DNA of 52,086 bases from a virus. Its lineage: Duplodnaviria; Heunggongvirae; Uroviricota; Caudoviricetes. Shown piece by piece: positions 1,278 through 52,086 of this stretch (the first letter of the stretch is position 1; the number at the start of each line of letters is the position of its first letter). The notes beneath the pieces were generated by a model. That model made no database searches, was not told where the DNA came from, and was given only the letters and a program-made list of their open reading frames with translations. The stretch lies in the IMG/VR virus record IMGVR_UViG_2698536618_000020; one strand, written 5' to 3'. Made by a program: the position numbers and the translations under genes.

Positions 1278-2059
1278 GCTGCTACCTTCTGCTCTGTGAC
1301 TTTCTGTTTCAGGAATCCAAGAACCTTCACAGCTTCAGCCTGTGTTAGTTCTGAAGATGTGTAAATGTTGCGGCGAAAAATCTGGGAACAGAGCGGCAAC
1401 AGGTCGTCATCCCACGTTTTTTCTATGGAAGTAAGAAGGGCGTTAATTTCCGACATGGTTTCTTCGTTAACCGGGGTGATGTCGCGTTCCGGCTGACGTT
1501 CTGTAGTATATGCAGTATTTTCGACAATACGCTCGGCTTCATCCTTGTCATAGATGCCAGCAAATCCGAAGGCCAGGCGAGCACACTGAATCATGGCTTT
1601 GTGCCGTAACATCCGTTTGGGATGCGACTGCCACGGTCCGGTGATTTCTCTGCCTTCGCGGGTTTTGAATGGTGCGCGGCGACATTCATCCATCCACTCG
1701 GTAACGCAGATCGGGTGATTGCGATCTTTGCGGTAAATCCGGCATGTACAGGACTCATTGTCCTGCTCAAAGTCCATGCCATCAAACTGCTGGTTTTCAT
1801 TGATAATGCGGGACCAGCCATCAACGCCAACCACCGGAACGATGCCGTTCTGCTTGTCAGGGAAGGCGTAAATTTCTTTCGTCCAGGGATTAAGGCCGTA
1901 CTGGTTGGCGACGATCAACAATGCGATAAATTGCGCATCGCTGGCATCACCTTTAAATGCCGTCTGGCGAAGAGTGGTGATTAGTTCCTGTGGGTCGACA
2001 GAATCCATGCCGACACGTTCAGCCAGCTTCCCTGCCAGCGTTGCGAGTGCTGTACTCAT
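1274..2059 (-). CDS. bet: Red-beta single-strand annealing protein
   Basis: 261 aa, matches lambda Beta along whole length ([48 protein letters not shown]...); 4-bp overlap with exo start. Confidence 0.95.
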
Positions 2060-2064
2060 CCGTT

Positions 2065-2361
2065 TTATACCTCTGAATCAATATTAATTTGGTGACGGGC
2101 GATGGTTTCAGCCATGTAGCGGATGTGTTCTGCCATGCGTTCCTGAAAATCGACATCGTCATCAAATGCACGGGAAATAGCTTTTTTGCTGGCCCCGTGA
2201 CGTTGCAGATTATCGATGCATAGCGATTCAAACAGGTGTTGGGGCAGACCTTTTTCCAGGTCGTCTGCCAGCTCAGCTTCAGTTTCTTCACGGGCAATTT
2301 GCTGGTAGTGTCGTGCCCATGACTGCTCTTCAATGCGATCGGGGATAAGCCAGGCATTCAT
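2065..2361 (-). CDS. gam: Gam host-nuclease (RecBCD) inhibitor, short GamS-like form
   Basis: 98 aa; '...[14 protein letters not shown]...[12 protein letters not shown]...RHGASKK...[12 protein letters not shown]...IDSEV' matches lambda GamS. Confidence 0.9.
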
Positions 2362-4430
2362 GATTTATCACCTTCGAAATTTTCAAGCCTGTTGGCAATC
2401 ATGATGGCGATATCAGGGATTGCTGGCGCTGTGGCTATACATGCGGGGTTGGCGCACAAACCATAGACGGCGGCAATCACGAGCTGTCTTTTCCAGTCGA
2501 GAGTTACTGGCTCAGAATTGGCGTCATCGCCGGACGTATCACTGCCTGGCTCGTTCTGAACAACGGTTTCGCCCTCCTGAGCGGCATCAACAGAGTTTTC
2601 CTGAATGATCTTCTCCTCAGTTTGTGCTGAGTCTTCTCCATCAGCGGCGTCATTTTCTCCAAAAGTTTCAGCGTAAGTTTCATCTCCCATTACTGGACCA
2701 CAGTCAGGGCAATGGCCGCCACCGTTCTGACTGCATGTGGTGCTAACCTTTTCCACTTCCTGTTGCATTACTGGCCCTGGCTGTTGCTCTTCTGGCCCGT
2801 TTTGTTGCGTATCCGGGCTGTTTTGTCCCGCTTCTGGGGCAATTTGTTCCACTTTGGGCTGATTCTGGTCCTCAGTGTCGCGAGTCTGGATCCCCTTCAC
2901 CCACTTCGGATCAGCAGGGTTACTGATGCCTTCAACGAATTCTCCACGCGAGGCAGCCAGTAATTTGTCGGCATCGACTGGATTTTTTGGGGGGATGTTT
3001 TCCCTGGCTTTATTGAGTTCCTCCCTCAGTTCCTGGTATTTCGTTTCTACAGATGAGACATTTTCCAGTGATTGCGTGTCCTCATTATGTTTAACTGGAA
3101 TTTCTTCCACTGATTCAGGCGCTGCCTGTTCATTAGCCATTGTGTCCGATGCTTGTTGCTTTTCTTCATCGCCATGTTTTCCTTCTGCTGTTCCGCGCTG
3201 CGGCATCGGTGCTGATGAGCGACCGCAGGCAATTTCCACGATTTCCGGATCCGGGTTAGCGTGATCGGTTTCGGTCAACACTTTGTTGAGATATTCAGTC
3301 ACGCGTGCCGGGATGGCCTCAATGCCGATTGGTGCTTCTTTCACGGAAGCCACCACAATGGCGCGGGAATAATCCAGCCCACCGGGCATGGCGATAAATT
3401 TGTCGCGAAAAACAGAAAAGGGCGGCTTATTCTCTGACACGATTTCTTCAACGCGTTTTGCGTGTGCTGGGTGCAGGTTATAAATATCCACATCCATTGA
3501 ACGGGCCAGAACGCCGGTGGCTACATCTCGTGCGAGTGATGTCTTATCATGTTTGAATCCTTCACCACGATCGGTAATATTTCCGCCGCCAGCGTTAGCA
3601 CCGGAAGGCGTACGGGTAATGCCTGAAACATAATTTCCGTTCTGCCATTCTTTTGTCAGCAGGCCCTGATCAAGGTAGTCAGTTTTCATCCAGGTGGAAA
3701 TGAACTTGTCGAATTCAGCCGGGCTGATGCGATGATTTGCAGAGTGGGGGAATGCTTTCCCTACAGATTCAGCCAGGCGACTAAGGTGATAGTTCGTCAG
3801 TTTATCCAGTTCATGATGCGCGGCGCGCACAGCAGTAAGCAGGCTCTGAAGGTAACTGTCCTCTGTGTCCATCTCCATACGGATCACGTTATTGCGTTGT
3901 TCTGGTGTGGCATGATGCCGGTATTTTCCATCTTCATCTTTGCTGAATAAGAAGAGGTGAAGGAAGCGATGAGTAAGGCTCAGAGTGGCGACGGGAATTT
4001 CACACTCAGAACAGTCATCGTCGCTGTCCGGGGATTCGCTTTTCTCCACATCATCCGGAATAGTTCCGTCCAGGTTATCGTTGTCATCGCCAGCAGTTGT
4101 GGCATCTTCACCGTTGATGTTGTCATCGAAGGGGATAGCCATCATGGTGATGCCATCGTTACCGCCTTTTTCATAGCGGTTGCAGAATTCAGTATCAAAC
4201 ACGCCTTCCGGTGGAAGGTCATTCACGACGGGGAAATTTACGCGAACGGGTTTTTTGAAATCATCCTCGTCGTAGCCTGCATCGTCCATGGCTGCAATGC
4301 AGCGGGAAACTGCGACAGAAAGTTTTCTGGCCTCGGTCCAGAAAAAACCGCCTTTGATGCCAAGGCGTTTTCTGACTTTATCGTTTTTTGCTTCGCAGTG
4401 TAGTGCAAAAGTCTGTTTATCAGCGCTCAT
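2358..4430 (-). CDS. large acidic hypothetical early protein (690 aa), function unknown
   Basis: 2073-nt uninterrupted ORF, ATGA-coupled to gam; long D/E/Q-rich low-complexity segments, two CxxC pairs ([16 protein letters not shown]), hydrophobic C-terminal segment; occupies the kil/cIII/ea10 slot of lambda. Confidence 0.7.
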
Positions 4431-4537
4431 TGTATTTAAATCTCTGGCTGGATTAGAATTAGCGGCCCTTTGTCTGATTTCTCCGAATACGGTGACGCAG
4501 GGAGAAATCCGGTAGCCTGCGCTGCCGGATTTTTATT

Positions 4538-4924
4538 TCAGTGGAAGGTTGCCTGGTTTGCTGTTTTGTGAGTTGTTTTTCCCTTTTCGTGCTGGCATTC
4601 AGGGCAGTCGCACTCAGAATTTTCTCTTGCAAACTCAAGAGCCTGTGCAAGTGTATGGATTTGTTGTACTCCAATGTTGCTTCTGACAACTTCACGTGCA
4701 GCATGAATATATGGGCTTGGTGTTTTGCCATTTAACCCACATAAAACAAAACGACTGTCCTTATATTCGTTATTTCCAACTTCTGTAAGCACTGAAAAAG
4801 AAAATACAAAGTCGATTTTGTATTCTTTGCATATTTTACTGATGCGTTCTGCAATTTCTTTGAGTTCATTTATTGCATCAGGACTGGTTTTGGAAAATAT
4901 TTCATTTTGCGCAAGTTCTTTCAT
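4538..4924 (-). CDS. hypothetical protein, AT-rich moron, C-terminal Cys cluster (CDCPECQHE)
   Basis: 128-aa ORF in visibly AT-rich DNA; same strand as PL operon. Confidence 0.5.
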   Translation of the reverse strand: MKELAQNEIFSKTSPDAINELKEIAERISKICKEYKIDFVFSFSVLTEVGNNEYKDSRFVLCGLNGKTPSPYIHAAREVVRSNIGVQQIHTLAQALEFARENSECDCPECQHEKGKTTHKTANQATFH

Positions 4925-5007
4925 TTTGATTTTTCCGTGATTGATAATTAATGCGGTTTTATTTCGGCTTGTCTGTTACAGATATGGAAGGTGTATTTTA
5001 TTACTCG

Positions 5008-5229
5008 TCACAACGACGCTGCTTTTACGGGTAAGCCATCGCGCCCGATGAAAACTTTAATCATGCAGTCGGTAATGCATGTTTTTGTTGTGAAGTTACG
5101 AATATAGAGTTTTCTCTTTTCAATATTGTTTGCTGAAGCGATATATGTCCGACCTTCATGAAGAACATAATCGCCAGGCGTCACGCACTGACGTGGTATT
5201 TCATCAGTTCCGAAGTGATGAGCAATCAT
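5008..5229 (-). CDS. hypothetical small protein
   Basis: 73-aa ORF from ATG with GGAG 6 nt upstream (longer GTG-start version ends 5247); AT-rich. Confidence 0.4.
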
Positions 5230-5402
5230 AATTATCTCCATTTTCACAAATGAACTTTGTTGATGCGGTGCCTGGTGCCTCCAGGTGACGTTAACCAGTT
5301 AACAACTAACGCCGGGTCAGGGGACGATGACTTTCCGTGACATCCTGTCGGTTTAACTGTTCCGCGTGCGCATAGCCGCATTCACCGCATCACAAAATTC
5401 AC

Positions 5403-17636: not shown

Positions 17637-17830
17637 TGAATGCTAAAATTCAAACGATACCTGAATTACTGATCTGCACCAGGGGAAATCAGACAGAAGT
17701 CGCCAGAATACTGAACTGCAATCGTGCTACAGTCAGAAAATACATTGATGATAAAGATGCGAAAAAGCACGCCGTCGTCAATGGCGTCCTTATGGTTCAT
17801 CGCGGATGGGGTAAAGATACTGATGCGTGA
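17633..17830 (+). CDS. ninH: NinH
   Basis: 65 aa; '[42 protein letters not shown]' matches lambda NinH. Confidence 0.8.
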
Positions 17831-18257
17831 TATCCGGCAGGTTCTTGAGCGCTGGGGGGCATGGGCGGTAAATAACTATGAGGATGTTACATGGTCGCCC
17901 ATTGCTGCCGGATTTAAGGGACTGATCCCCGAAAAAGTAAAATCACGTCCACAGTGCTGTGACGATGATGCGATGGTGATATGCGGGTGCATAGCCCGCC
18001 TTTACCGGAACAATCGCGATCTGCATGACTTGCTGGTTGATTACTACGTGTTGGGGGAGACGTTCATGGCGCTGGCACGGAAACATGGGTGCTCTGACAC
18101 CTGTATAGGTAAACGCCTTCACAAAGCGGAGGGGATTGTTGAAGGCATGCTGATGATGCTGGGAGTGAGGCTTGAGATGGATCGGTATGTTGAGCGTGAA
18201 TTGCCGGGAGGGAGAAGCTCTGTATTTTATCAGCGAAAAAATAGTTTACGATCGTAA
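17823..18257 (+). CDS. Q: late antiterminator Q (933W/Q21-like type, not lambda Q type)
   Basis: 144 aa from ATG overlapping ninH stop; '[24 protein letters not shown]...[16 protein letters not shown]' as recalled for Q of Stx-phage type; last gene before late leader. Confidence 0.75.
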
Positions 18258-19022: not shown

Positions 19023-20933
19023 ATGACATTTAAACACTATGATGTTGTCAGGGCGGCGTCGCCGTCAGACCTTGCGAAACGAATAACTCAAAAACTGAAG
19101 GAAGGGTGGCAGCCTTATGGTAGTGCGCTGATTTCGACAGCTGGTTATGGTGCGGAGTTCATCCAGCCAGTTGTGAGTGAGGGGAGCATCTCATCACCAG
19201 AGGAGCCAGGCAACCGTCCGACGACCTCAGCGCCTTCTGTTGCGCCAGAATATTACTATGTGATCGCGCTTGCTGGTCAGTCCAATGGTATGTCATACGG
19301 TGAGGGACTGCCATTACCGGATACATTCGACAGCCCTGATCCACGTATTAAACAGTTAGCGCGTCGCAGTACGGTGACACCGGGCGGTGCAGCATGCAAA
19401 TATAACGACATCATTCCGGCGGACCATTGTCTGCATGATGTGCAGGACATGAGCCGTCTTAACCATCCGAAAGCGGACCTGTCAAAGGGGCAGTACGGAA
19501 CCGTGGGGCAGGGGCTGCATATCGCCAAAAAACTGCTGCCGTTTATACCGGCGAATGCGGGCATTCTGCTGGTTCCGTGCTGTCGTGGTGGTTCAGCGTT
19601 CACCACCGGAGCTGATGGCACATACAGTGACGCGAGTGGCGCCTCGGAGAATTCAACCCGCTGGGGTGTGGACAAGCCGCTGTATAAGGACCTTATCGGT
19701 CGAACAAAAGCGGCACTGGAGAAGAACCCGAAAAATGTGCTGTTTGCCGTGGTGTGGATGCAGGGGGAATTTGATTTTGGCGGTACGCCGGCAAATCATG
19801 CCGCACAGTTTGGTGCGCTGGTTGATAAATTCCGTGCAGACCTGGCGGATATGGCAGGCCAGTGCGTCGGTGGCTCTGCTGGCGGTGTTCCCTGGATATG
19901 CGGGGACACGACGTATTTCTGGAAGCAGAAGAACGAATCCACGTACCAGACGGTGTACGGCAGCTATAAAAATAAAACGGAAAAGAATATCCATTTCGTA
20001 CCGTTCATGACCGATGAGAACGGGGTGAATGTGCCGACGAACAAACCGGAAGAAGACCCGGACATTCCAGGTATCGGTTATTACGGTTCGAAATGGCGTG
20101 ACAGCTCAGCCACCTGGACGTCACAGGACAGGGCGAGCCATTTCAGTTCATGGGCTCGCCGTGGGATTATTTCCGACCGTCTGGCAACGGCGATTCTGAG
20201 CTGCGCGGGTAAGTCTTCTGCGTTTGTTAATGGTACTGCCGGGGTGGTTGTTCCAGACAGACCGGTTACCACCTCAGAGTCTGTAATTTTTTACGATGCC
20301 AAAAAAGCTACAGACAATCAGCTGAAACCCTATGGCTGGGACGGCATGTATGGCAGACGCACACTGGTTGATGACAGCGGCAATAAAGCTCTGCGAATTG
20401 AGAAAAATAACAGCGCGAAATCCTGGTCAATGTACTGTGATATTGCTGCAGACAAGGCAAAACTTTTACTGGAAAAAGGCGGAGAAATTGCTGTCCGGTT
20501 TAAAATCCCCGAAAACGTCAATCTTGAGACAACCAGAAACAAGTATGCCTTTGGTTTGTACTGGCGAATAGCGGAATGGCCGGGTGAGGGTGGTGAAGGC
20601 CATCTGAGTTCTTTCTTTGTCCAGACAGATAAAGCCAGTATTAATGTTGCATACCATCATACAGTTAATCAACAAAAAGAACTTGGCACGTTTGGCGCAT
20701 TCGACCATGACTGGCATACGCTTGCATTTAAATTTAAGGGCAGTAACAGCATTAATGTTACTCCGGTGCTTGATGGTGTGGATGGACAGGCGTTTGACCT
20801 GGTGAAATGGGCCAATACTGCTAATGGACTCAACAGGTTTGTCATTACGGATATTACAGGTAGTGCAGAAACCTACCCTGTACTTATTGATACGGTGGAA
20901 GTTAAAGCAAACAAAGCTGGAGCAGCCGCATAA
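19023..20933 (+). CDS. nanS-p: NanS-p-like sialate O-acetylesterase (prophage-encoded)
   Basis: 636 aa; N-terminus MTFKHYDVVRAASPSDLAKRITQKLKEGWQPYGS as recalled for Stx-prophage NanS-p/DUF1737; central SGNH/SASA-like region; position between Q and lysis genes. Confidence 0.75.
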   Translation: MTFKHYDVVRAASPSDLAKRITQKLKEGWQPYGSALISTAGYGAEFIQPVVSEGSISSPEEPGNRPTTSAPSVAPEYYYVIALAGQSNGMSYGEGLPLPDTFDSPDPRIKQLARRSTVTPGGAACKYNDIIPADHCLHDVQDMSRLNHPKADLSKGQYGTVGQGLHIAKKLLPFIPANAGILLVPCCRGGSAFTTGADGTYSDASGASENSTRWGVDKPLYKDLIGRTKAALEKNPKNVLFAVVWMQGEFDFGGTPANHAAQFGALVDKFRADLADMAGQCVGGSAGGVPWICGDTTYFWKQKNESTYQTVYGSYKNKTEKNIHFVPFMTDENGVNVPTNKPEEDPDIPGIGYYGSKWRDSSATWTSQDRASHFSSWARRGIISDRLATAILSCAGKSSAFVNGTAGVVVPDRPVTTSESVIFYDAKKATDNQLKPYGWDGMYGRRTLVDDSGNKALRIEKNNSAKSWSMYCDIAADKAKLLLEKGGEIAVRFKIPENVNLETTRNKYAFGLYWRIAEWPGEGGEGHLSSFFVQTDKASINVAYHHTVNQQKELGTFGAFDHDWHTLAFKFKGSNSINVTPVLDGVDGQAFDLVKWANTANGLNRFVITDITGSAETYPVLIDTVEVKANKAGAAA

Positions 20934-43734: not shown

Positions 43735-46700
43735 ATGGCTTATTCCGATGAACAGCGCCCTGAAGCGCAATTTGGCAACCAGAGCCGCAACAGCCTGAAC
43801 ATTCAGCAGCCGGGAGAGACTGACAGCTATGATGTGTTTTTCTCCGATCCCAATCGCTGGAAGGACAACAGCACGTCGTTCAGCCTGGGCGATGTATTGC
43901 CAACTATGGGGAAAGGTGTCGCCCAGTCCGTCCGGGGGACAGGGGAAATGGCCCGTGGACTCGGTGATGCGATGATTCAGAGCCCGGTAAAAACAGGGGC
44001 ACGTATTTTAAATGAGTTCAGCCGTATGGGGCTGCCGGGAGTAGCAACTGTTCAGGATATTTTTGTCGGTGGCAGCAAGGGGGCGGATGAGGTCATCGAC
44101 ACTCTGCCTGATGGAAAAAATGCGGTTACTGATACTGTCGGTAAAGGTCTGAAGGTCACAGGCAAGGCAGTCAGTGGCGGCGCTAAAGCCTCGGATGAAT
44201 GGCTGACTGGCAAGATGTCGCCGGGGGCGCAGCGGGCGCTGAATACACCGATGACTGAAGGATATGATGATTCAGCGGTCTGGGTAGCGAAAGGGGTTAA
44301 CCTGATTGGTGCGCTTGTACCGGATATGGTTGCAGGCGGTGTGACTAAAAAGCTGGGTGATGTCACTCTGCGAAAAGTGCTGACCGCCGGGCTGGAGAAA
44401 AAATACATCGCGGCAGGGATGCAGCCGGAAAGAGCCACAGCACTGGCAGCCGAAGCTGTCGATAAAAAAATGCCGGATTTTTTCCAGGCAGGCCTGATCA
44501 CCCATTCCACTGTCAGTGCGCAAGGGCGGAGTGCAATGGCAGCGGCAGATGCTGTTCTTAACGCGGATTATTCTGAGCTGGCGAAGTCACCGAAATTTCA
44601 GCAGACCTTTTTGTCAATTGATGCAGATCCGCAGCACGCGCAGCTTACTGACCGCCAGAAAATGGACCTGGCAAAAGAGCGTGTTGCCGATGAGGTGCGT
44701 GCGCAACTGGCAACCGATCCTGAATTGCTGGCTGTGAATGCCATGGCGGCAAAACTGGGCGATGCTCAGTTGCTTAATCTGGCGATGCGGGGCACGGCGA
44801 AGACCGTTAAAAGCGGCATTGTCAGAAATGCCACGGAACAGGGGACGATTAATGCGGCGCAGGGTGGCTATTCACGCTATCAGGAAAACACGGCATTGCG
44901 TGAGACCGCCGGAATGGATGTGTCACCGTGGGAGGGCGTGGCTGACGCAACGATCGAAGGTGCAGCCCTTGGTGCTGCAATGGGGGCACCATTCGGTGCG
45001 GCTGCCGGATATCGTGGAAAACGTCAGGCGGCAGATGAAGCAGCCATGCGTGAGGCTGAAAGCGTTCCTCAGGACGAATCGGCTCCGCAACCCGAACCGG
45101 TTGATCCGGTGGCACAGCATCGTGAATCTATGCAGGGGATGAATCGCGAGCAGCTTCTGGAACAGTATGCTGATGCGGATATGGCACATGAGGGAGACAC
45201 GTCTGCCGTTCATCGCCGGGAAGCCGCCAGCCAGCTGTTGAATGAACTGGATGAACAGGCGAAGCGACAGGCGGTGATGGATGAGCTGAAGGCGAAGCCG
45301 CGCCCTGAACTGCTTGAGGAATACCGAAAACTCAGCCAGAAGGAAGGGCGTACTGATACTGAAGAGCAGCAGTTACAGGCAATACGTGATGTGCTTCGCC
45401 CTCAGCGGGAGGCCAGACCGGAGGCACAGCCACAGCCGGAAAATGCGGATGATGGCGACGGGAGTATTTACCCGACGGTGCGGTTCCGCGATCCGGATGA
45501 AGTTCGTATTGAAATTAACGAGAGTGGTGCGTCCAGACCAGCAGAACGCATTGAAAAGGTGCGTCCGGACAACCGTTATTTCACGGATGAAAAAAGTGCT
45601 CTGGGGAGCGACGTTTTCCGCAATGCCAGCGCCACCGGCCTGAAACCGTCCGTAGTGAAGAAAGGCGAGAATCAGTATGCCGTTGAAATGGATAATCCTG
45701 CGTTCTCTGAAGATGTGGCAACGGAGACCATTAACACTCTGGCTGACGGAGAGCGTATTACTGATGCTGATCCGATGGAACAGCCCGCGTTCATGCGTGA
45801 CCCGCGATTCCGTGGTTTTACGGGGGATGATACAGAAGTGCAGGCCCGTCTTGCCCGTGGCAACGCGCCGACGGCGGAAGAACTGGTGCGTTCCCAGATG
45901 GCTGAAGGTGATGCCGGTCCGACAGCACAGGAGTTAACTGAGCGTCCACGCCTTCCCGCTCCCGGCGATATTCATCCCGGACAGGGATATCCGTTACCAG
46001 GAGAAGTGGCGCGTACGCCGGATGAAAATCAGGCCGGACGTGGTGGTCGTTTTACCACAACCGGTGAGGTGAAGGGCCAGAGTTTCCAGAAAGGACGTGC
46101 GCAGGCACCGGAAAATGCCGCTGGTCGCCAGGGGGAAATACTGGAGGGCGAAACAGTTCGTCGTGGTCTGCCGTCACCGGATGAGCAGAACGCCACAGCA
46201 CCAGTGCGTGAAGGACTTCCTGCACCTGAAAGTCAGCGTGGGGTTGATATGCCACAGCCTGAATCACTCCCTCGTATGGTTCGTGACTCCCTTCCGGAAC
46301 TGGCACAGCAGGCAGAAGCACGCAGACAGACCGGGGATAATCGCCAGACCATAACCGATGTTCCGGATACTGAGGTGCCGGTGCCGGTAGATAAACCGAG
46401 CACTCACCAGCAGGTGCGTGGTGCGAAAATTGAAGACTTTGGCGAGGAGATTAAGGGCGCGGCAAAACACCGTTATGCGCAGCTTGCTGAAGCTATGGGT
46501 AAAACGCTGGAGGATGGGGAGTACGCGACACAACCACTGAGCAAACTGTTTCCAAAGCCGGATTATGCCCGTCTGGAAAAAGAAGGTGTGGATAGTGACA
46601 CGCTGGCAATGATGGCGTTGTATCGCAGTGAAATTCCCACCAGAACAAGCCGTAACATGCAGAAATGGATCAGCATTGTTAAAAGCGGTCGCGAAGCTAC

Positions 46701-49700
46701 TGCCGGTATGCTGGAGGGGAAAATTCCGGCAGCGAAACTGGCTGATATGATGGACAGTAAGCCGGGGTTACGGAGCATGTCGGATACCTGGAAACTGCTC
46801 CGTACGCTTTCTGCATTGCAGATTGATAAAGCATCCGGCTATCGTGTCAGGTCCGGTGTTTATTCGTTTGTCGGGGGAAAACGTTACGATCCGCCGCAAA
46901 TGATGTATTCGCTTCGTGATAGCAAGGGGCGCGACCTCTTTTTCTCGGAAAGCCGGGATGAGTTACTGAAAAAGGCGAAAGCATATTTCGATGAACAAGG
47001 CTCCAGAGAAAGGGAAACGCCAGCAACCTCTGCTGATGACAGAATAACCTTTGACGTGTACCGGCATAAGGCCAGTGGCGACATTTTTATCGGTTATGGC
47101 AAAAACAGGCAGAAACTGAAGGGCGGTTTTGAGTCTGCCCGTGATGCACATGATTATGTGCGCACACATCGTGATGAGCTGGTTAATCAGGTGAAGGCGC
47201 TGCGTGAAGTCTCGCGTGAGGAGCAGCGTAACGCCACCAACCGCGATCGTACCGGACCAGAACGCCGCAAGGGGGATGTTTCGCCGGAGCAGTTCAGTGA
47301 TGCGTTTGGTTTTCGTGGTGTGCAGTTTGGTAATTATGTGGAAAGTCCGCGTCGTCAGGCTGATTTGAACCGGGCTTATGACTCGCTGCATGACCTGGCT
47401 GACGTGCTGAACGTGCCGACAAAAGCGCTTTCTCTGAACGGTCGTCTTGGGCTTGCTTTTGGTGCCCGTGGTAAGGGTAAGGCGGCGGCACACTATGAGC
47501 CGGGTGAGGTGGCAATCAACCTGACAAAAGGTAACGGACCGGGGGCGCTGGCCCACGAATGGTTCCATTCACTGGATAATTATTTTGGTCGTTATGATGT
47601 TTCCACTGACGGGAAGATCACGTCAGGTGGCGACTATATGACGGAAGCACAGCGTGCCGGGCGCGTATTTAAAGACGGCAGGTATGTTGATGCGGAATAT
47701 CCGGTACGTCAGGAGGTTTACGACGCGTTTAAAGGCGTGATGAAAGCCATTAACAGCAGTGACATGTTGCGTCGTTCTGAACGCCTGGATGGCGTTCGTT
47801 CAAAACCGTACTGGTCAACGGATGTTGAAATGGCGGCGCGAGCCTTTGAGCGTTATGTTCAGGATAAAGCGCGTATGGCTGGCGTGGAGAATGATTATCT
47901 GGTCAATATCCGTAAGGCACCTGAGCACAACACAGATAACACCTGGGCTTATCCGACGAATGCGGAACTGGATGGCGGTATTCGTGATGCATTCGATCAC
48001 CTGTTCAGTACGCTGAAAACCCGTGAGACGGACAAGGGCGTTGCGTTTTATTCCCGTAAGGGCGTGACCCGCACACCTGAAGGCAATCTCATTTCGGATG
48101 TTAACCGCAGTGCGGAAGCCAAAGGCAGCCCGGTCCCGCAGGTTGAAGCGGTTGCCCGTGGCGTGATGAGTGGCATTAAGGACAGTGACCTGAAGGTCCG
48201 CGTGGTGAAGTCACAGAAAGAGGCTGAAGCGCTGGCGGGTGAATCGTTCGACGGTTACGGCAGGGTGCATGCGTTCTATCGTCCGGATAAACGTGAAATT
48301 GTCCTGGTGGCGGATAACATCCCTGACGGGCGGACCGTTCGCGAGAAGCTGCGTCACGAGATTATCCACCATGCAATGGAGCATGTAGTCACGCCAGCGG
48401 AATATCAGACGATTATTAAGACCGTGCTGAAAACCCGTGACAGTGATAACGCCACCATCCGTGAAGCCTGGCGTAAGGTTGATGCGTCTTATGGTAAGGA
48501 ATCACCGGAAGTGCAGGCGGGTGAATTTCTGGCACATATGGCGGAGAAACAGCCGAATAAATTTGTGGCGGCGTGGGAGCGTGTTGTTGCCCTGGTCAAA
48601 GGGGTACTGCGTCGCACGGGGTTACTGAAGCCGACAGAGCTGAACGATATCAGACTTGTTCGCGAAACTATTCGCACGTTAGGCCAGCGTGTGCGGGAAG
48701 GTTACACGCCGCGTGAGGATGGCGCTGGCGCATCGTCTCAGTACTCCCGTAGCGGTAAGCCTGATCCGTTCAAAGTGCCGGAAGGTGAGGGCGAGCGTTA
48801 TCGTGATGACCTTGCCAGAATGATGAAGTCTCTGCGCTCAACGGATTTAACGGTAAACATCGGGCGTACGCCGCCGGTATTGCGTCACCTTGGCGCACCA
48901 GATTTGCCGCTGGTTATCTCCCGCGACACTGTGCGTAAGGCCACCAATGGTGTGAAACATGTGGTGCCGATGGATGTTATCGAGAGACTACCGGAACTGA
49001 TGCACGATCCGGATGCAATTTACCGCTCAGCGACAGAAAGAAATGCGGTTGTGATGCTGCTTGATGCCGTGGATAAAAATGGTGATCCGGTGGTGTCAGC
49101 GGTACACATGAAGGCTGTCCGGTCGCGTCTGGAAATCAACAAGGTAGCTTCTGTTTACGGTACAGAAAATGGAAAAAAACTGAAGAGTATGGAAATGACC
49201 GGGTTAACGTTGTACCGGAGAGAAAAATTAAGCCGCGATAACCTTCTGCACAGAGGGCTCCAATTGCCCAAAGGGGAACATTCTTATCGCGGCTCTGCGG
49301 ATAAAATACTCTATCCTGAAGATATTCGCAAGGGGCCGCATTACTCCCGTACCAGCAGTCTGACACCGGAAGAGACAATTGCATCGCGTTTTGTGCGCCA
49401 GATGCAGGATAAATTCCAGGTGCTGAAAGCTGTTCAGGAGAATATCCGTAAAACTGGCGGAAAAATAGACGACAGTAACAACGCTTATATGGCGGAAGAA
49501 CTCTTCCACGGGAAGGCGGAAAACGACCTGAACGTGATGAAGGAGCGCTACGTTCAGCCACTGGCTAAATTACTGGCGGACTACAAAATTGCGCAGGCCG
49601 ATCTGGATGAGTACCTCTACGCCCGTCACGCGCCGGAACGTAACGCGCATATCGCGAAAATCAACCCGAAAATGCCGGACGGCGGTTCGGGGATGACCAA

Positions 49701-52086
49701 CGCGGAAGCGGCGGAAATCATGCAGCGTGTGCGTAACAGTGGCAAACAGGCACAGTATGACCGTCTGGCAGGGATTGTTGACGATATGCTGGCTCGTCGC
49801 CGTGAGCTTATCCGTGAGGCCGGACTGGAAGAGAGCGGTGTGGTGGATGCCTGGCAGAACGCCTACCGTTACTACGTTCCTCTGAAAGGCCAGGATGTTG
49901 ACGGTGTGGTGTCACTGCCCCGTACAGGTAAAGGCTTCACTATCGGCGGACGTGAAAGCAGGCAGGCCATGGGGCGTGCATCCCGCGCACAGTCTCCGTC
50001 CACTCAGGCGATACAGGACTTGAGCGAATCGCTGATCCGCAATCGCAAAAATGAAGTAGGTAACGCCTTCCTGAAACTGGTACAGGATAATCCAGACAAG
50101 GATTACTGGCAGGTATTCACCAATGAGCGACCGGACACCATGCGTGCGATTGCAGAGCGTGTTGATCCGGAAACCGGTGAAACCCGTCACGAAGTTGTCG
50201 AACGTCCTGTACCGATGGCAATGATGGCAGACCGGTACTTCACCACCAAAAAGAACGGCAAAACGTACTACATCAAACTCCATGATCCGCGCCTGATGCG
50301 TGCGATGAAGAATATGGGACCGGAAACCAGTAACGCCGTAATCCGCACGCTGGGGAAAGTTAACCGCTTCCTGGCAACGGTGAACACGTCGTATAACCCG
50401 GAATTCCTGGTCAGTAACTTCATCCGTGACGTGCAGACGGCGGTGATGAACCTGAAGGCGGAGCAGGGAAGGAGCGACGGTAAACTGAAAGGGCTCGATA
50501 ACTTATCCGCCCTGGCTGTGGTGAAAGACAGCCGGTCTGCCATGTCTGCCGTATACGCCCGTCTGCGTGGTAAAACCCTCACGGGCAACGGTGCGCAGTG
50601 GCAGAAGGTGTGGAAAGAGTTTGTTGAGGACGGAGGTAAAACCGGCTGGTTTAACATGGGTGACCTTGAAGGCCAGCAGAAGGAAATGGATCGCCTTGTA
50701 TCGCTGGCGAAGGGAGGATGGAAAGGCCAGAGTATCGGTGCATGGAATTCGTTCCTTAACCTTGTCGAGGATGCCAACGGGGCGGTTGAAAACGCTCTGC
50801 GTCTTTCTGCCTATAAACACGCCCGTGATGCTGGTTTGTCACGCCAGCAGGCGGCGTCTCTTGCCAAAAACATGACGGTGAACTTTAACCGTCGTGGTGA
50901 GCAGGGAGCGCTGATGAACTCGCTGTATATGTTTGCCAACGCCAGCATTCAGGGGACCGCAAACCTGGTGAGAACGCTCGGACATCTTAATGGCGACGGG
51001 CCGTTACCGGAGCGCCTTCGCTGGAAGAATCTCAATGTACCGCAGAAAATCGCGCTTGCAGCTGTGGGAGCGGGTTATCTGCTTGGCTCGCTTAACCGCA
51101 GTGTTGCGGGGGAGGATGATGACGGGGTTAACTGGTATGACAAGGTGCCGTCTCATGTGAAAGAGCGTAACCTCGTCATTATGAAATCGGTGTTCGGGGG
51201 CAAGGCCGGAGAGTACTGGAGTATTCCTCTGCCTTACGGGTACAACGTTTTCTTCCTGCTCGGGCATACTGCTGAAGGTGTGGCAGCGGGCGACCTGACT
51301 GCTTCACGTGCTGCCGGTAATGTTGTCGGTGGTATCCTGGGGGCATTCAGTCCTGTGGGCAGTGAAACGTCGGAAACACTGTCCGGGGCATTGCTGAAAA
51401 ATGCAGCGCCGACCATTCTGCGTCCGTTTGCGAACCTTGCCATGAATGAAAACTTCATGGGGGCGCAGATTTACCAGGAGAACATGCCATTTGGCACACC
51501 GAAACCGGACAGCCAGCTGGGCAGACGTTCAACGCCTGAGGCGTACAAGGCGTTTGCATCCTGGCTGAATGCGTTCTCAGGTGGCAGCCAGTATCGTCCC
51601 GGCGCGGTGGATATTACACCGGAATCGCTGAAATTCTGGATTGACTATATCTCCGGAGGGACAGGGCGCTTCATTTCCAAAACCACAGATGCGGCGGTGA
51701 AATCGCTGAACGGTATTGATATACCGGAACAGCAGGTGCCCTTCCTGGGGAAAATTTCGGGTGAGGTGATGCCGTATGCTGACCAGCAGAAGATGTATGA
51801 CCGGATGACGGAGGTTGCGCAGTACCACGCAGAGCTGAAGAGTCTGACCGGTGCAGAAAGAACGGCATTCATTGACGAGAACAACGGAAAATTGTCGATG
51901 AACGGGCTTATGCAGGATACCCGGAAGAGACTGAAGGATTTGCGTAAACAGCGTGATGCCATTTATGCCGACAGTTCTCTCAGTCTGGCGCAGCAGGCGG
52001 CGATAGTGAAATCGGTAGAGCGGGATATGAAGGTTGCCGTGGATCGCTTTAACCGCGAGTACAACAAAAAAGTGGGAGTGGAGTAA
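43735..52086 (+). CDS. giant 2783-aa protein, candidate polyvalent virion/ejected protein with two HExxH motifs
   Basis: 8352-nt uninterrupted ORF (cannot be chance); HEWFH at 47554-47568 and HEIIH(H) at 48355-48369; follows internal-virion-protein-like genes; stop TAA at window end. Confidence 0.85.
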   Translation: MAYSDEQRPEAQFGNQSRNSLNIQQPGETDSYDVFFSDPNRWKDNSTSFSLGDVLPTMGKGVAQSVRGTGEMARGLGDAMIQSPVKTGARILNEFSRMGLPGVATVQDIFVGGSKGADEVIDTLPDGKNAVTDTVGKGLKVTGKAVSGGAKASDEWLTGKMSPGAQRALNTPMTEGYDDSAVWVAKGVNLIGALVPDMVAGGVTKKLGDVTLRKVLTAGLEKKYIAAGMQPERATALAAEAVDKKMPDFFQAGLITHSTVSAQGRSAMAAADAVLNADYSELAKSPKFQQTFLSIDADPQHAQLTDRQKMDLAKERVADEVRAQLATDPELLAVNAMAAKLGDAQLLNLAMRGTAKTVKSGIVRNATEQGTINAAQGGYSRYQENTALRETAGMDVSPWEGVADATIEGAALGAAMGAPFGAAAGYRGKRQAADEAAMREAESVPQDESAPQPEPVDPVAQHRESMQGMNREQLLEQYADADMAHEGDTSAVHRREAASQLLNELDEQAKRQAVMDELKAKPRPELLEEYRKLSQKEGRTDTEEQQLQAIRDVLRPQREARPEAQPQPENADDGDGSIYPTVRFRDPDEVRIEINESGASRPAERIEKVRPDNRYFTDEKSALGSDVFRNASATGLKPSVVKKGENQYAVEMDNPAFSEDVATETINTLADGERITDADPMEQPAFMRDPRFRGFTGDDTEVQARLARGNAPTAEELVRSQMAEGDAGPTAQELTERPRLPAPGDIHPGQGYPLPGEVARTPDENQAGRGGRFTTTGEVKGQSFQKGRAQAPENAAGRQGEILEGETVRRGLPSPDEQNATAPVREGLPAPESQRGVDMPQPESLPRMVRDSLPELAQQAEARRQTGDNRQTITDVPDTEVPVPVDKPSTHQQVRGAKIEDFGEEIKGAAKHRYAQLAEAMGKTLEDGEYATQPLSKLFPKPDYARLEKEGVDSDTLAMMALYRSEIPTRTSRNMQKWISIVKSGREATAGMLEGKIPAAKLADMMDSKPGLRSMSDTWKLLRTLSALQIDKASGYRVRSGVYSFVGGKRYDPPQMMYSLRDSKGRDLFFSESRDELLKKAKAYFDEQGSRERETPATSADDRITFDVYRHKASGDIFIGYGKNRQKLKGGFESARDAHDYVRTHRDELVNQVKALREVSREEQRNATNRDRTGPERRKGDVSPEQFSDAFGFRGVQFGNYVESPRRQADLNRAYDSLHDLADVLNVPTKALSLNGRLGLAFGARGKGKAAAHYEPGEVAINLTKGNGPGALAHEWFHSLDNYFGRYDVSTDGKITSGGDYMTEAQRAGRVFKDGRYVDAEYPVRQEVYDAFKGVMKAINSSDMLRRSERLDGVRSKPYWSTDVEMAARAFERYVQDKARMAGVENDYLVNIRKAPEHNTDNTWAYPTNAELDGGIRDAFDHLFSTLKTRETDKGVAFYSRKGVTRTPEGNLISDVNRSAEAKGSPVPQVEAVARGVMSGIKDSDLKVRVVKSQKEAEALAGESFDGYGRVHAFYRPDKREIVLVADNIPDGRTVREKLRHEIIHHAMEHVVTPAEYQTIIKTVLKTRDSDNATIREAWRKVDASYGKESPEVQAGEFLAHMAEKQPNKFVAAWERVVALVKGVLRRTGLLKPTELNDIRLVRETIRTLGQRVREGYTPREDGAGASSQYSRSGKPDPFKVPEGEGERYRDDLARMMKSLRSTDLTVNIGRTPPVLRHLGAPDLPLVISRDTVRKATNGVKHVVPMDVIERLPELMHDPDAIYRSATERNAVVMLLDAVDKNGDPVVSAVHMKAVRSRLEINKVASVYGTENGKKLKSMEMTGLTLYRREKLSRDNLLHRGLQLPKGEHSYRGSADKILYPEDIRKGPHYSRTSSLTPEETIASRFVRQMQDKFQVLKAVQENIRKTGGKIDDSNNAYMAEELFHGKAENDLNVMKERYVQPLAKLLADYKIAQADLDEYLYARHAPERNAHIAKINPKMPDGGSGMTNAEAAEIMQRVRNSGKQAQYDRLAGIVDDMLARRRELIREAGLEESGVVDAWQNAYRYYVPLKGQDVDGVVSLPRTGKGFTIGGRESRQAMGRASRAQSPSTQAIQDLSESLIRNRKNEVGNAFLKLVQDNPDKDYWQVFTNERPDTMRAIAERVDPETGETRHEVVERPVPMAMMADRYFTTKKNGKTYYIKLHDPRLMRAMKNMGPETSNAVIRTLGKVNRFLATVNTSYNPEFLVSNFIRDVQTAVMNLKAEQGRSDGKLKGLDNLSALAVVKDSRSAMSAVYARLRGKTLTGNGAQWQKVWKEFVEDGGKTGWFNMGDLEGQQKEMDRLVSLAKGGWKGQSIGAWNSFLNLVEDANGAVENALRLSAYKHARDAGLSRQQAASLAKNMTVNFNRRGEQGALMNSLYMFANASIQGTANLVRTLGHLNGDGPLPERLRWKNLNVPQKIALAAVGAGYLLGSLNRSVAGEDDDGVNWYDKVPSHVKERNLVIMKSVFGGKAGEYWSIPLPYGYNVFFLLGHTAEGVAAGDLTASRAAGNVVGGILGAFSPVGSETSETLSGALLKNAAPTILRPFANLAMNENFMGAQIYQENMPFGTPKPDSQLGRRSTPEAYKAFASWLNAFSGGSQYRPGAVDITPESLKFWIDYISGGTGRFISKTTDAAVKSLNGIDIPEQQVPFLGKISGEVMPYADQQKMYDRMTEVAQYHAELKSLTGAERTAFIDENNGKLSMNGLMQDTRKRLKDLRKQRDAIYADSSLSLAQQAAIVKSVERDMKVAVDRFNREYNKKVGVE

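Follow-up and report, generated by a model that had tools for sequence, protein, structure and literature searches.

A RecE N-terminal protein that lacks the nuclease domain and ends in a conserved helical hairpin is encoded directly upstream of gam, bet and exo in a Caudoviricetes virus

Introduction

The nuclease activity of RecE, the exonuclease VIII of the Rac prophage, does not depend on the N-terminal region of the enzyme. Here, we describe a 690-amino-acid (aa) protein in which this region occurs on its own. Its open reading frame (ORF) lies in viral DNA of 52,086 nucleotides (IMG/VR record IMGVR_UViG_2698536618_000020, Caudoviricetes; this whole stretch is referred to below as the window), immediately upstream of gam, bet and exo, which make up a lambda-type Red module. 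The protein is non-catalytic, consists of several domains, is maintained by selection and combines the RecE N-terminal region with a conserved terminal hairpin. A preliminary description of the window, made from the sequence without database searches, had already singled the ORF out as a large acidic protein located next to gam.

The role of the RecE N-terminus has been a puzzle ever since the first description of the enzyme, and both a 2023 review and a 2026 paper list the function of the N-terminal domain as unknown. In the literature, activity of this region has been correlated with efficient linear–linear recombination and with the Gam-independence of RecET. Efficient linear–linear assembly and direct cloning are the most useful property of RecET. 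With 50-bp homologies, RecET is up to 1000-fold better than Red at linear assembly (2026 paper). This assembly does not require Gam, and large RecE has been suggested to possess a “Gam-like activity” (PMC13048471).

Relatives without the RecE nuclease have received little attention. A paper on O157 prophages referred to such genes simply as “Exo VIII-type” (PMC2669165). Nuclease-less “RecE-2” proteins of lambdoid Rec modules are mentioned in passing and without analysis, as “distantly related”, in a recent survey (Genome Res 2025, PMC12315714). The same work lists Abc1 and Arf as Rec-module genes that aid recombination, are neither nucleases nor annealases and have unknown molecular functions (PMC12315714).

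Results

Homology to the N-terminal region of RecE

The preliminary description held that the 690-aa protein could not be assigned to any family. This view has to be abandoned, since a Pfam family, an NCBIfam model, a PHROG profile and E. coli K-12 RecE all match it. Pfam Exonuc_VIII (PF06630) matches residues 55–197 (E = 1.4e-12), and phrog_607 is matched with E = 1.8e-259 over profile positions 1–617 of 883. Residues 1–637 correspond to positions 1–598 of 877 in the NCBIfam exodeoxyribonuclease VIII model, NF007259, with a score of 736.8 bits that does not reach the equivalog cut-off of 1269. In BLASTP comparison with K-12 RecE, residues 51–635 align with RecE residues 43–578 (E = 1e-176, 51% identity, about 85–90% in the central block), and nothing aligns beyond RecE residue 578. 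An identity of 87% over residues 1–611 was found with P0114, a 1049-aa full-length RecE that carries PF12684 and has RecT encoded next downstream. Judged by these alignments, homology to the Rac RecE N-terminal region extends over residues 1 to ~611.

The PD-(D/E)XK nuclease domain (PF12684/DUF3799) is not present: the Pfam search of the 690-aa protein returned PF06630 only, and a phmmer search of all PDB chains, which include the RecE nuclease domain 3H4R, gave no match. PDB sequence searches with a profile of the family core found nothing either. A tblastn search revealed no match to the RecE nuclease, to a DnaQ-like (DEDDh) domain or to RecT anywhere in the window, and the place immediately downstream of the gene is taken not by a cognate recT but by gam, bet and exo. 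The protein is thus almost certainly the RecE N-terminal region without its nuclease.

The preliminary description had named clear full-length homology to a characterised family as an argument against its own reading. The homology found spans about 89% of the protein, but it covers exactly the uncharacterised part of RecE and leaves out the catalytic domain. The further statement that no function can be read from the sequence still stands; neither fold nor profile searches yielded one.

In GenBank and RefSeq, the protein and its relatives are called “exodeoxyribonuclease VIII” or “RecE family exodeoxyribonuclease”. This name, which was transferred from the non-catalytic N-terminal Pfam domain, is wrong as to activity.

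Among 1.84 billion representative proteins, which were searched exhaustively, only 205 relatives turned up, 87 of them at least 400 aa long. PADLOC models of known defence systems did not match the 690-aa protein at E values up to 1, a result that says little about a role as an inhibitor, since PADLOC does not contain anti-defence inhibitor families.

Coupling to gam, coding integrity and maintenance of the gene

The TGA stop codon of the ORF overlaps the ATG of gam by four nucleotides (ATGA, context ..AAATCATGAATG..), and a Shine–Dalgarno-like AAGGTGA of gam is located within the last codons of the ORF. Three diverged phages (PhiR5_2, 75/02 Stx and phiSTEC1589-Stx1c) and further contigs share the overlap. 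The translational coupling noted in the preliminary description is confirmed. As for the suggestion that the gene occupies the kil/cIII slot of lambda, the position next to gam is correct, but kil has not been replaced and persists further upstream (Table 1).

The possibility that the ORF is a frameshifted gene or a fusion of several small genes was considered and rejected: a single intact reading frame is found in hundreds of homologue clusters. When compared with the copy in Shigella phage 75/02 Stx, the ORF has an overall ratio of nonsynonymous to synonymous substitution rates (dN/dS) of 0.23. The ratio is 0.19 in the first domain (D1), 0.14 in the second (D2), 0.12–0.13 in the conserved helix pair and 0.145 in the C-terminal tail, and it rises to 0.5–0.9 in the acidic linkers. 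By this measure the ORF is under purifying selection, and an uninterrupted frame of 2 kb combined with a dN/dS of 0.23 against diverged copies is far beyond what chance would produce.

An identical 690-aa protein was found on 23 contigs, and the gene is present together with gam in 79–105 of 5426 complete E. coli genomes. A separate promoter was looked for, and none convincing was found. The gene is a maintained, circulating member of the early-left (pL) operon and is expressed with gam, bet and exo.

Domain layout and cysteine motifs

The protein has an isoelectric point (pI) of 4.56 and a net charge of −59 (126 Asp and Glu versus 67 Lys and Arg), in agreement with the strongly acidic character noted earlier. 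Two independent AlphaFold2 (AF2) models, one of the 690-aa protein and one of its 32%-identical relative P0150, show the same order of D1, D2, disordered tether and terminal hairpin (boundaries in Table 1). A nuclease fold is absent from the model of the 690-aa protein, and P0150 is laid out alike. The low complexity ascribed to the protein in the preliminary description applies to about one third of it, namely 229 residues in three acidic linkers with a predicted local distance difference test (pLDDT) score below 50; the remainder is confidently folded.

The all-helical D2 is the module most widely retained in the family, as judged by alignment occupancy. It contains the family-invariant motifs RTPSGAxAGGGNxTDR, DIYN, DYSRA, TETDHAxPD and ACG. 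The tether that precedes the tail is acidic and disordered, and its length varies from 79 to 318 residues.

Both CxxC pairs seen earlier are real, at residues 140–143 and 574–577. The first is part of a motif with C2H2-like spacing at the D2 boundary, which is present in 115 of 120 close homologues versus three of 87 distant ones and is therefore specific to the E. coli clade. The second is the latter half of a likewise clade-specific zinc knuckle, C-x2-C-x9-C-x2-C, which is complete in 115 of 120 close homologues and in seven of the 87 distant representatives. In the protein studied here, the knuckle does not have all four metal ligands, the first cysteine being replaced by Ser563; this allele occurs on 23 contigs and is thus not a sequencing error. 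From their sequence contexts, the two pairs are unrelated to each other and do not form one zinc site, and neither defines the family.

The C-terminal hairpin

In place of a nuclease, the protein ends in a tail with the consensus LTYxQQLTIAALQGLCANPA-x6-(D/E)(D/E)(I/L)PxMAxxLA. A hidden Markov model of the tail scores 81 bits at residues 621–688. The motif was found in 23 of the 87 relatives of at least 400 aa, members from other genera included, and always at the extreme C-terminus. It has no Pfam match and appears in PHROGs only as the end of phrog_26058, a family with no assigned function; no counterpart was found in RecE or DEDDh proteins. A PDB search with the tail profile gave only a weak match to a spidroin helix (E = 0.023), which is probably compositional.

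The hydrophobic C-terminal segment of the preliminary description was recovered, with a Kyte–Doolittle maximum of 1.75 over 19 residues. Values of 1.62–1.72 were obtained for close relatives, also above the classical membrane-helix threshold of 1.6, while in other family members and genera the score is 0.5–1.3 and the segment is polar or amphipathic, e.g., QQLTIAALQGLCANPA. Only in the E. coli clade does hydropathy thus exceed the threshold, and anchoring in the membrane is not something that the family has conserved. Both AF2 models predict a two-helix hairpin broken at N-P and not one long helix, and a single conserved C-terminal transmembrane helix was not found.

A search of the large database with the tail profile returned nine short proteins only. 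None of them is a new fusion; they are either fragments or small separate ORFs that occupy this same slot of the genome. In two Serratia loci (L150/L151:5001–5240), the tail is encoded by a separate 79-aa ORF located between DUF1482 and DUF4224/integrase genes. In Enterobacter asburiae (L152:5001–5165), a 54-aa tail ORF begins 28 nt after the gene of a 638-aa YdfE_N/YdfE_C protein and in a different frame. These small ORFs may be the products of gene splitting or autonomous mini-genes. The 638-aa protein itself was considered as a lead through its YdfE_N and YdfE_C domains, which are newer Pfam families, and was set aside: its similarity to the 690-aa protein is only marginal (E = 0.01), and publications on YdfE contain no functional data.

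Alternative C-termini, gene partners and exchange of modules

One N-terminal region is joined to three alternative C-termini, i.e., the RecE nuclease, a DnaQ-like 3′–5′ exonuclease or the hairpin. Among the 87 relatives of at least 400 aa, 23 carry the tail, 21 the RecE-type nuclease and 14 an Rv2179c/DnaQ-like domain, with 29 unclassified. Loci were surveyed in one genome per species (59 loci) and in IMG/VR (80 loci of the E. coli clade), using the core alignment for the search. All 59 genome loci belong to Enterobacteriaceae or Erwinia except for two metagenome-assembled genome (MAG) bins, labelled Veillonella parvula and “Proteobacteria bacterium”. The Veillonella-labelled bin (L021, JAGZPX010000007.1) contains an Enterobacteriaceae-type member of the DnaQ class and is probably the result of binning contamination.

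The three classes differ in their partners. RecT follows the gene in 64 of 65 loci of the RecE-nuclease class (20/21 in genomes and 44/44 in viral contigs). An annealase is found in none of the 19 loci of the DnaQ-like (DEDDh) class. For the hairpin class on E. coli-clade phage contigs, gam is the next gene in 24 of 24 cases, and the order gam, bet, exo is seen in all 20 contigs that are long enough. Conversely, lambda-type gam is absent from all 44 viral loci of the RecE/RecT class and from all 19 DEDDh-class loci. In other genera, the hairpin class is represented by four loci with no Rec gene nearby; prophages of this class without exo, bet or gam in the vicinity belong to Lelliottia, Enterobacter and one further genus of Enterobacteriaceae. 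Downstream of the hairpin-class gene, these four loci have excisionase-like genes, a small DUF7740 gene in three cases and an integrase gene in three, the fourth contig ending before such a gene could be reached.

Two observations on gene order may be added. Three prophage “exonuclease” genes that encode proteins of 813–847 aa (L006:5001–7442, L007:3589–6060 and L008:4001–6544) combine a RecE-type N-terminal region with an Rv2179c/DnaQ-like domain. Their loci are arranged as dicB, DUF1482, gene, xis/int and lack an annealase. The DUF7740 protein (phrog_11217) is encoded after the tail-class gene, directly or one small ORF further on, in four of five loci outside E. coli (L017:8097–8309, L050:8417–8737, L055:2651–2950 and L152:5155–5457), which is roughly the place of gam in the window. 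It was considered as a Gam analogue and rejected at the level of sequence: it has no sequence similarity to Gam, and its PHROG families have no assigned function.

The N-terminal regions of all classes are acidic, with a median pI of 4.7–4.9 and a net charge of −5.5 to −7 per 100 residues, and this acidity is kept across classes at about 30% identity. At the DNA level, the gene is a mosaic. Codons 145–513 are nearly identical to those of a full-length recE (locus L003), with a synonymous divergence (dS) of about 0.02, while D1 has diverged from it (dS 0.97); similarity to full-length recE stops at nucleotide 1779 of the ORF, i.e., at position 2652 of the window, inside the tether. Two blocks also recur in prophage “exonuclease” genes of the DEDDh class, namely D1 (81% DNA identity in the first 289 nt) and the block of helix pair and knuckle (76–83% over nt 1456–1769). 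A nearly identical centre with diverged or unrelated flanks indicates that modules have been exchanged between nuclease-bearing and nuclease-less genes.

Neighbouring genes and the window

The features of the locus are collected in Table 1. The 128-aa ORF between kil and the 690-aa gene was seen at this place in every related phage and contig inspected.

Table 1. Parts of the 690-aa ORF and genes next to it (window positions).
Feature	Coordinates	Strand	Remarks
Whole ORF, 690 aa plus stop, ATG start	2358..4430	minus	Free-standing RecE N-terminal region plus hairpin
D1, residues 1–100	4131..4430	minus	Small alpha/beta domain with basic N-terminus; overlaps the start of Exonuc_VIII
Acidic disordered linker 1, residues 101–144	3999..4130	minus	Net charge about −10 per 30 residues
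C140-x2-C143-x10-H154-x3-H158	3957..4013	minus	C2H2-like spacing, D2 boundary; both His on a predicted helix
D2, residues 145–410	3201..3998	minus	All-helical; AF2 pLDDT 83–97 (88–98 in P0150)
Acidic disordered linker 2, residues 411–457	3060..3200	minus	AF2; dN/dS 0.9
Conserved helix pair, residues 458–513	2892..3059	minus	Common to RecE and DEDDh-class genes
Long acidic disordered tether, residues 514–642	2505..2891	minus	AF2
Zinc-knuckle remnant, residues 563–577	2700..2744	minus	Ser563 in place of the first Cys (VSTTC vs VCTTC)
C-terminal helical hairpin (~45 residues), residues 643–690	2361..2504	minus	AF2, alignment; marks the nuclease-less lineage
gam, 98 aa	2065..2361	minus	GamS-type; Pfam Gam E = 4.8e-65
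bet, 261 aa	1274..2059	minus	Annealase of the Red module
exo, 226 aa	597..1277	minus	Lambda-type YqaJ exonuclease; the only recombination exonuclease of the window
128-aa ORF	4538..4924	minus	phrog_2016; C-terminal CDCPECQHE motif; between kil and the 690-aa gene
kil	5008..5247		phrog_294

In the region 1900–5400, 15 terminator-like hairpins were counted versus 4.1 ± 1.8 expected from shuffled sequences. They are mostly on the plus strand, antisense to the genes, and fall together with a strongly negative AT skew (−0.33 to −0.44 at 2500–3250), for which the A-rich coding strand of the linker is responsible.

Further along the window, positions 20000–44000 are 94–95% identical to Stx2a-converting phages. 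No stx or tRNA genes were found between a Q-like ORF (17724–18257) and a 636-aa ORF (19023–20933). In view of this identity and the lack of stx, the element looks like an stx-less phage of the 933W type. A very long ORF of at least 2783 aa (43735–52086, plus strand) continues past the end of the window.

Discussion

The protein studied here belongs to a known family and has an architecture that is uncharacterised and has barely been noticed, and its database names expose a systematic misannotation. We favour the reading that it is a non-catalytic RecE N-terminal protein that acts in trans as an accessory of end-processing recombination for Red, and we give this reading as a whole a probability of about 50%. 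The fusion of the N-terminal region to two unrelated DNA exonucleases would tie it to the processing of DNA ends. Taken together with end-to-end recombination and Gam-independence, which are the only phenotypes linked to the region, the fusions make a non-catalytic accessory the most economical reading; taken alone, we consider the accessory role an even bet.

How such an accessory would work can be outlined only tentatively, and we rate the specific mechanism as less likely than not. The 690-aa protein would give lambda-type Red in trans what the first ~600 residues of RecE give in cis. Its folded modules may bind a common target, which could be the end of a linear DNA or a host protein that processes ends, and the acidic linkers would keep it stretched out. 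The hairpin at its end, in the place of the oligomeric nuclease domain, could serve for self-association or docking. Overall, DNA ends would be protected or kept together during resection and annealing by Exo and Bet.

Four alternative roles and one annotation have to be weighed against this. The protein could be a pure inhibitor with no role in annealing, a Gam-like decoy that mimics nucleic acid and blocks a host nuclease or defence enzyme in place of, or as well as, RecBCD. Acidity conserved in all classes (median pI 4.7–4.9) and translational coupling to gam are both consistent with this. So is the missing Gam at RecE/RecT and DEDDh loci, which would be expected if the N-terminal region meets a Gam-like need, as are the Gam-independence of RecET assembly and the Gam-like activity proposed for large RecE (PMC13048471). 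However, the protein has no similarity to Gam, and Gam is present beside it in each of the E. coli-clade phages examined, a finding that speaks against mere redundancy. That RecE loci lack Gam could be due to module linkage alone, given that Gam moves along with Bet and Exo. In addition, two confidently folded domains with invariant polar motifs exceed the needs of a simple mimic; the lack of a PADLOC match adds little weight. On balance, we consider a purely inhibitory protein fairly unlikely.

According to a second alternative, RecE has been split: the hairpin would serve as a docking peptide for the separately encoded lambda Exo trimer (or for Bet or Gam) and so physically rebuild a machine made of the N-terminal region and a 5′–3′ exonuclease. 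The hairpin is under purifying selection and sits on a flexible tether exactly at the place of the RecE nuclease domain, and in E. coli-clade phages it is invariably linked to Gam-Bet-Exo, all of which speaks in favour. Yet the hairpin is kept in prophages of Lelliottia, Enterobacter and one further genus of Enterobacteriaceae that have no Exo, Bet or Gam nearby, and in Serratia and Enterobacter loci that lack Red it is encoded by a small ORF of its own. Since it is conserved where Red is missing, its partner cannot be specific to Red, and we judge this alternative distinctly improbable.

It is very unlikely that the protein is a membrane-anchored toxin or superinfection-exclusion protein with the C-terminus as a tail anchor. 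The early-left region does house exclusion and host-killing genes such as kil, and the hydropathy maxima here (1.75) and in close relatives (1.62–1.72) exceed 1.6; against this, the segment scores 0.5–1.3 in other members and is modelled by AF2 as a two-helix hairpin, PADLOC gives no match, and the other family members are fusions with soluble exonucleases that act on DNA. Less probable still is a functionless remnant, a recE truncated by an incoming lambda-type Red module and kept by linkage. The abrupt end of similarity to full-length recE inside the gene and the loss of one knuckle cysteine would fit such an origin, but a dN/dS of 0.12–0.15 in the folded parts and the tail, the presence of the tail in 23 of 87 diverged representatives and hundreds of intact clusters speak for a maintained gene. 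That the protein is an active exodeoxyribonuclease VIII, as the names in GenBank and RefSeq have it, has hardly any chance of being true, given that neither a PD-(D/E)XK nor a DEDDh domain is present, that its 737 bits fall short of the cut-off of 1269 in a match that ends at model position 598 of 877, and that it owes its name to a non-catalytic N-terminal Pfam domain.

The accessory reading can be carried one step further, to a proposal that we regard as speculative and rather doubtful. The RecE N-terminal region may be an autonomous, portable factor that protects or bridges DNA ends and cooperates with unrelated nucleases, namely RecE or a DnaQ-like exonuclease (in cis) and lambda Exo (in trans), with the hairpin as an oligomerisation or docking module. 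If this were true, a single added gene would give Gam-Bet-Exo a RecET-like ability to join linear molecules via short homologies, and the purpose of the “dispensable” 600 residues of RecE would be explained.

The phage amounts to a natural experiment, in which the region has been uncoupled from nuclease and RecT and coupled to Gam-Bet-Exo. Its occurrence apart from both, translationally coupled in front of Gam-Bet-Exo, shows it to be a separable module under selection. The RecE N-terminus thereby becomes approachable through the gain or loss of a single gene, be it in a Red background or in a phage that can be cultured, such as PhiR5_2, which plates on K-12. Surveys of recombination modules that score the label “exodeoxyribonuclease VIII” as a nuclease will miscount.

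Comparison with known systems

Lambda Gam, a RecBCD inhibitor and DNA mimic, resembles the 690-aa protein in being an acidic product of the early-left operon. Gam aids the survival of linear DNA, and for large RecE a Gam-like activity has been put forward. The two proteins differ in that the 690-aa protein matches Gam (PF06064) neither in Pfam or PHROG searches nor in fold, and in that Gam itself is encoded immediately downstream. With P22 Abc1 and Arf, the likeness would be one of role only; these proteins are not homologous to the 690-aa protein and are far smaller. The DnaQ-like genes of Qin-type and O157 prophages (YdfE-related) have in common with it D1, the block of helix pair and knuckle, the acidic N-terminal region and the operon region, but they end in a 3′–5′ exonuclease (PF16473) and have no annealase or gam adjacent.

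A further related system is RecE-2 (PMC12315714). What that article says of it fits the 690-aa protein, and the comparison is one of descriptions. There, RecE-2 is called “distantly related”, whereas the 690-aa protein is very close to RecE in its centre, and the article does not describe the hairpin, the three-way choice of C-termini or the strict association with partners. N-terminal homology to RecE, the lack of a predicted nuclease fold and the terminal hairpin are all found in the 690-aa protein, which would place it with the nuclease-less RecE-like type (RecE-2/phrog_26058-type).

With Rac RecE of K-12 (866 aa), the 690-aa protein shares the region that corresponds to RecE residues 43–578 (its own residues 51–635). 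From there on, the two part: RecE continues into a PD-(D/E)XK domain (about 600–866) and pairs with RecT, whereas the 690-aa protein ends in a hairpin of ~45 residues and its gene adjoins gam, bet and exo.

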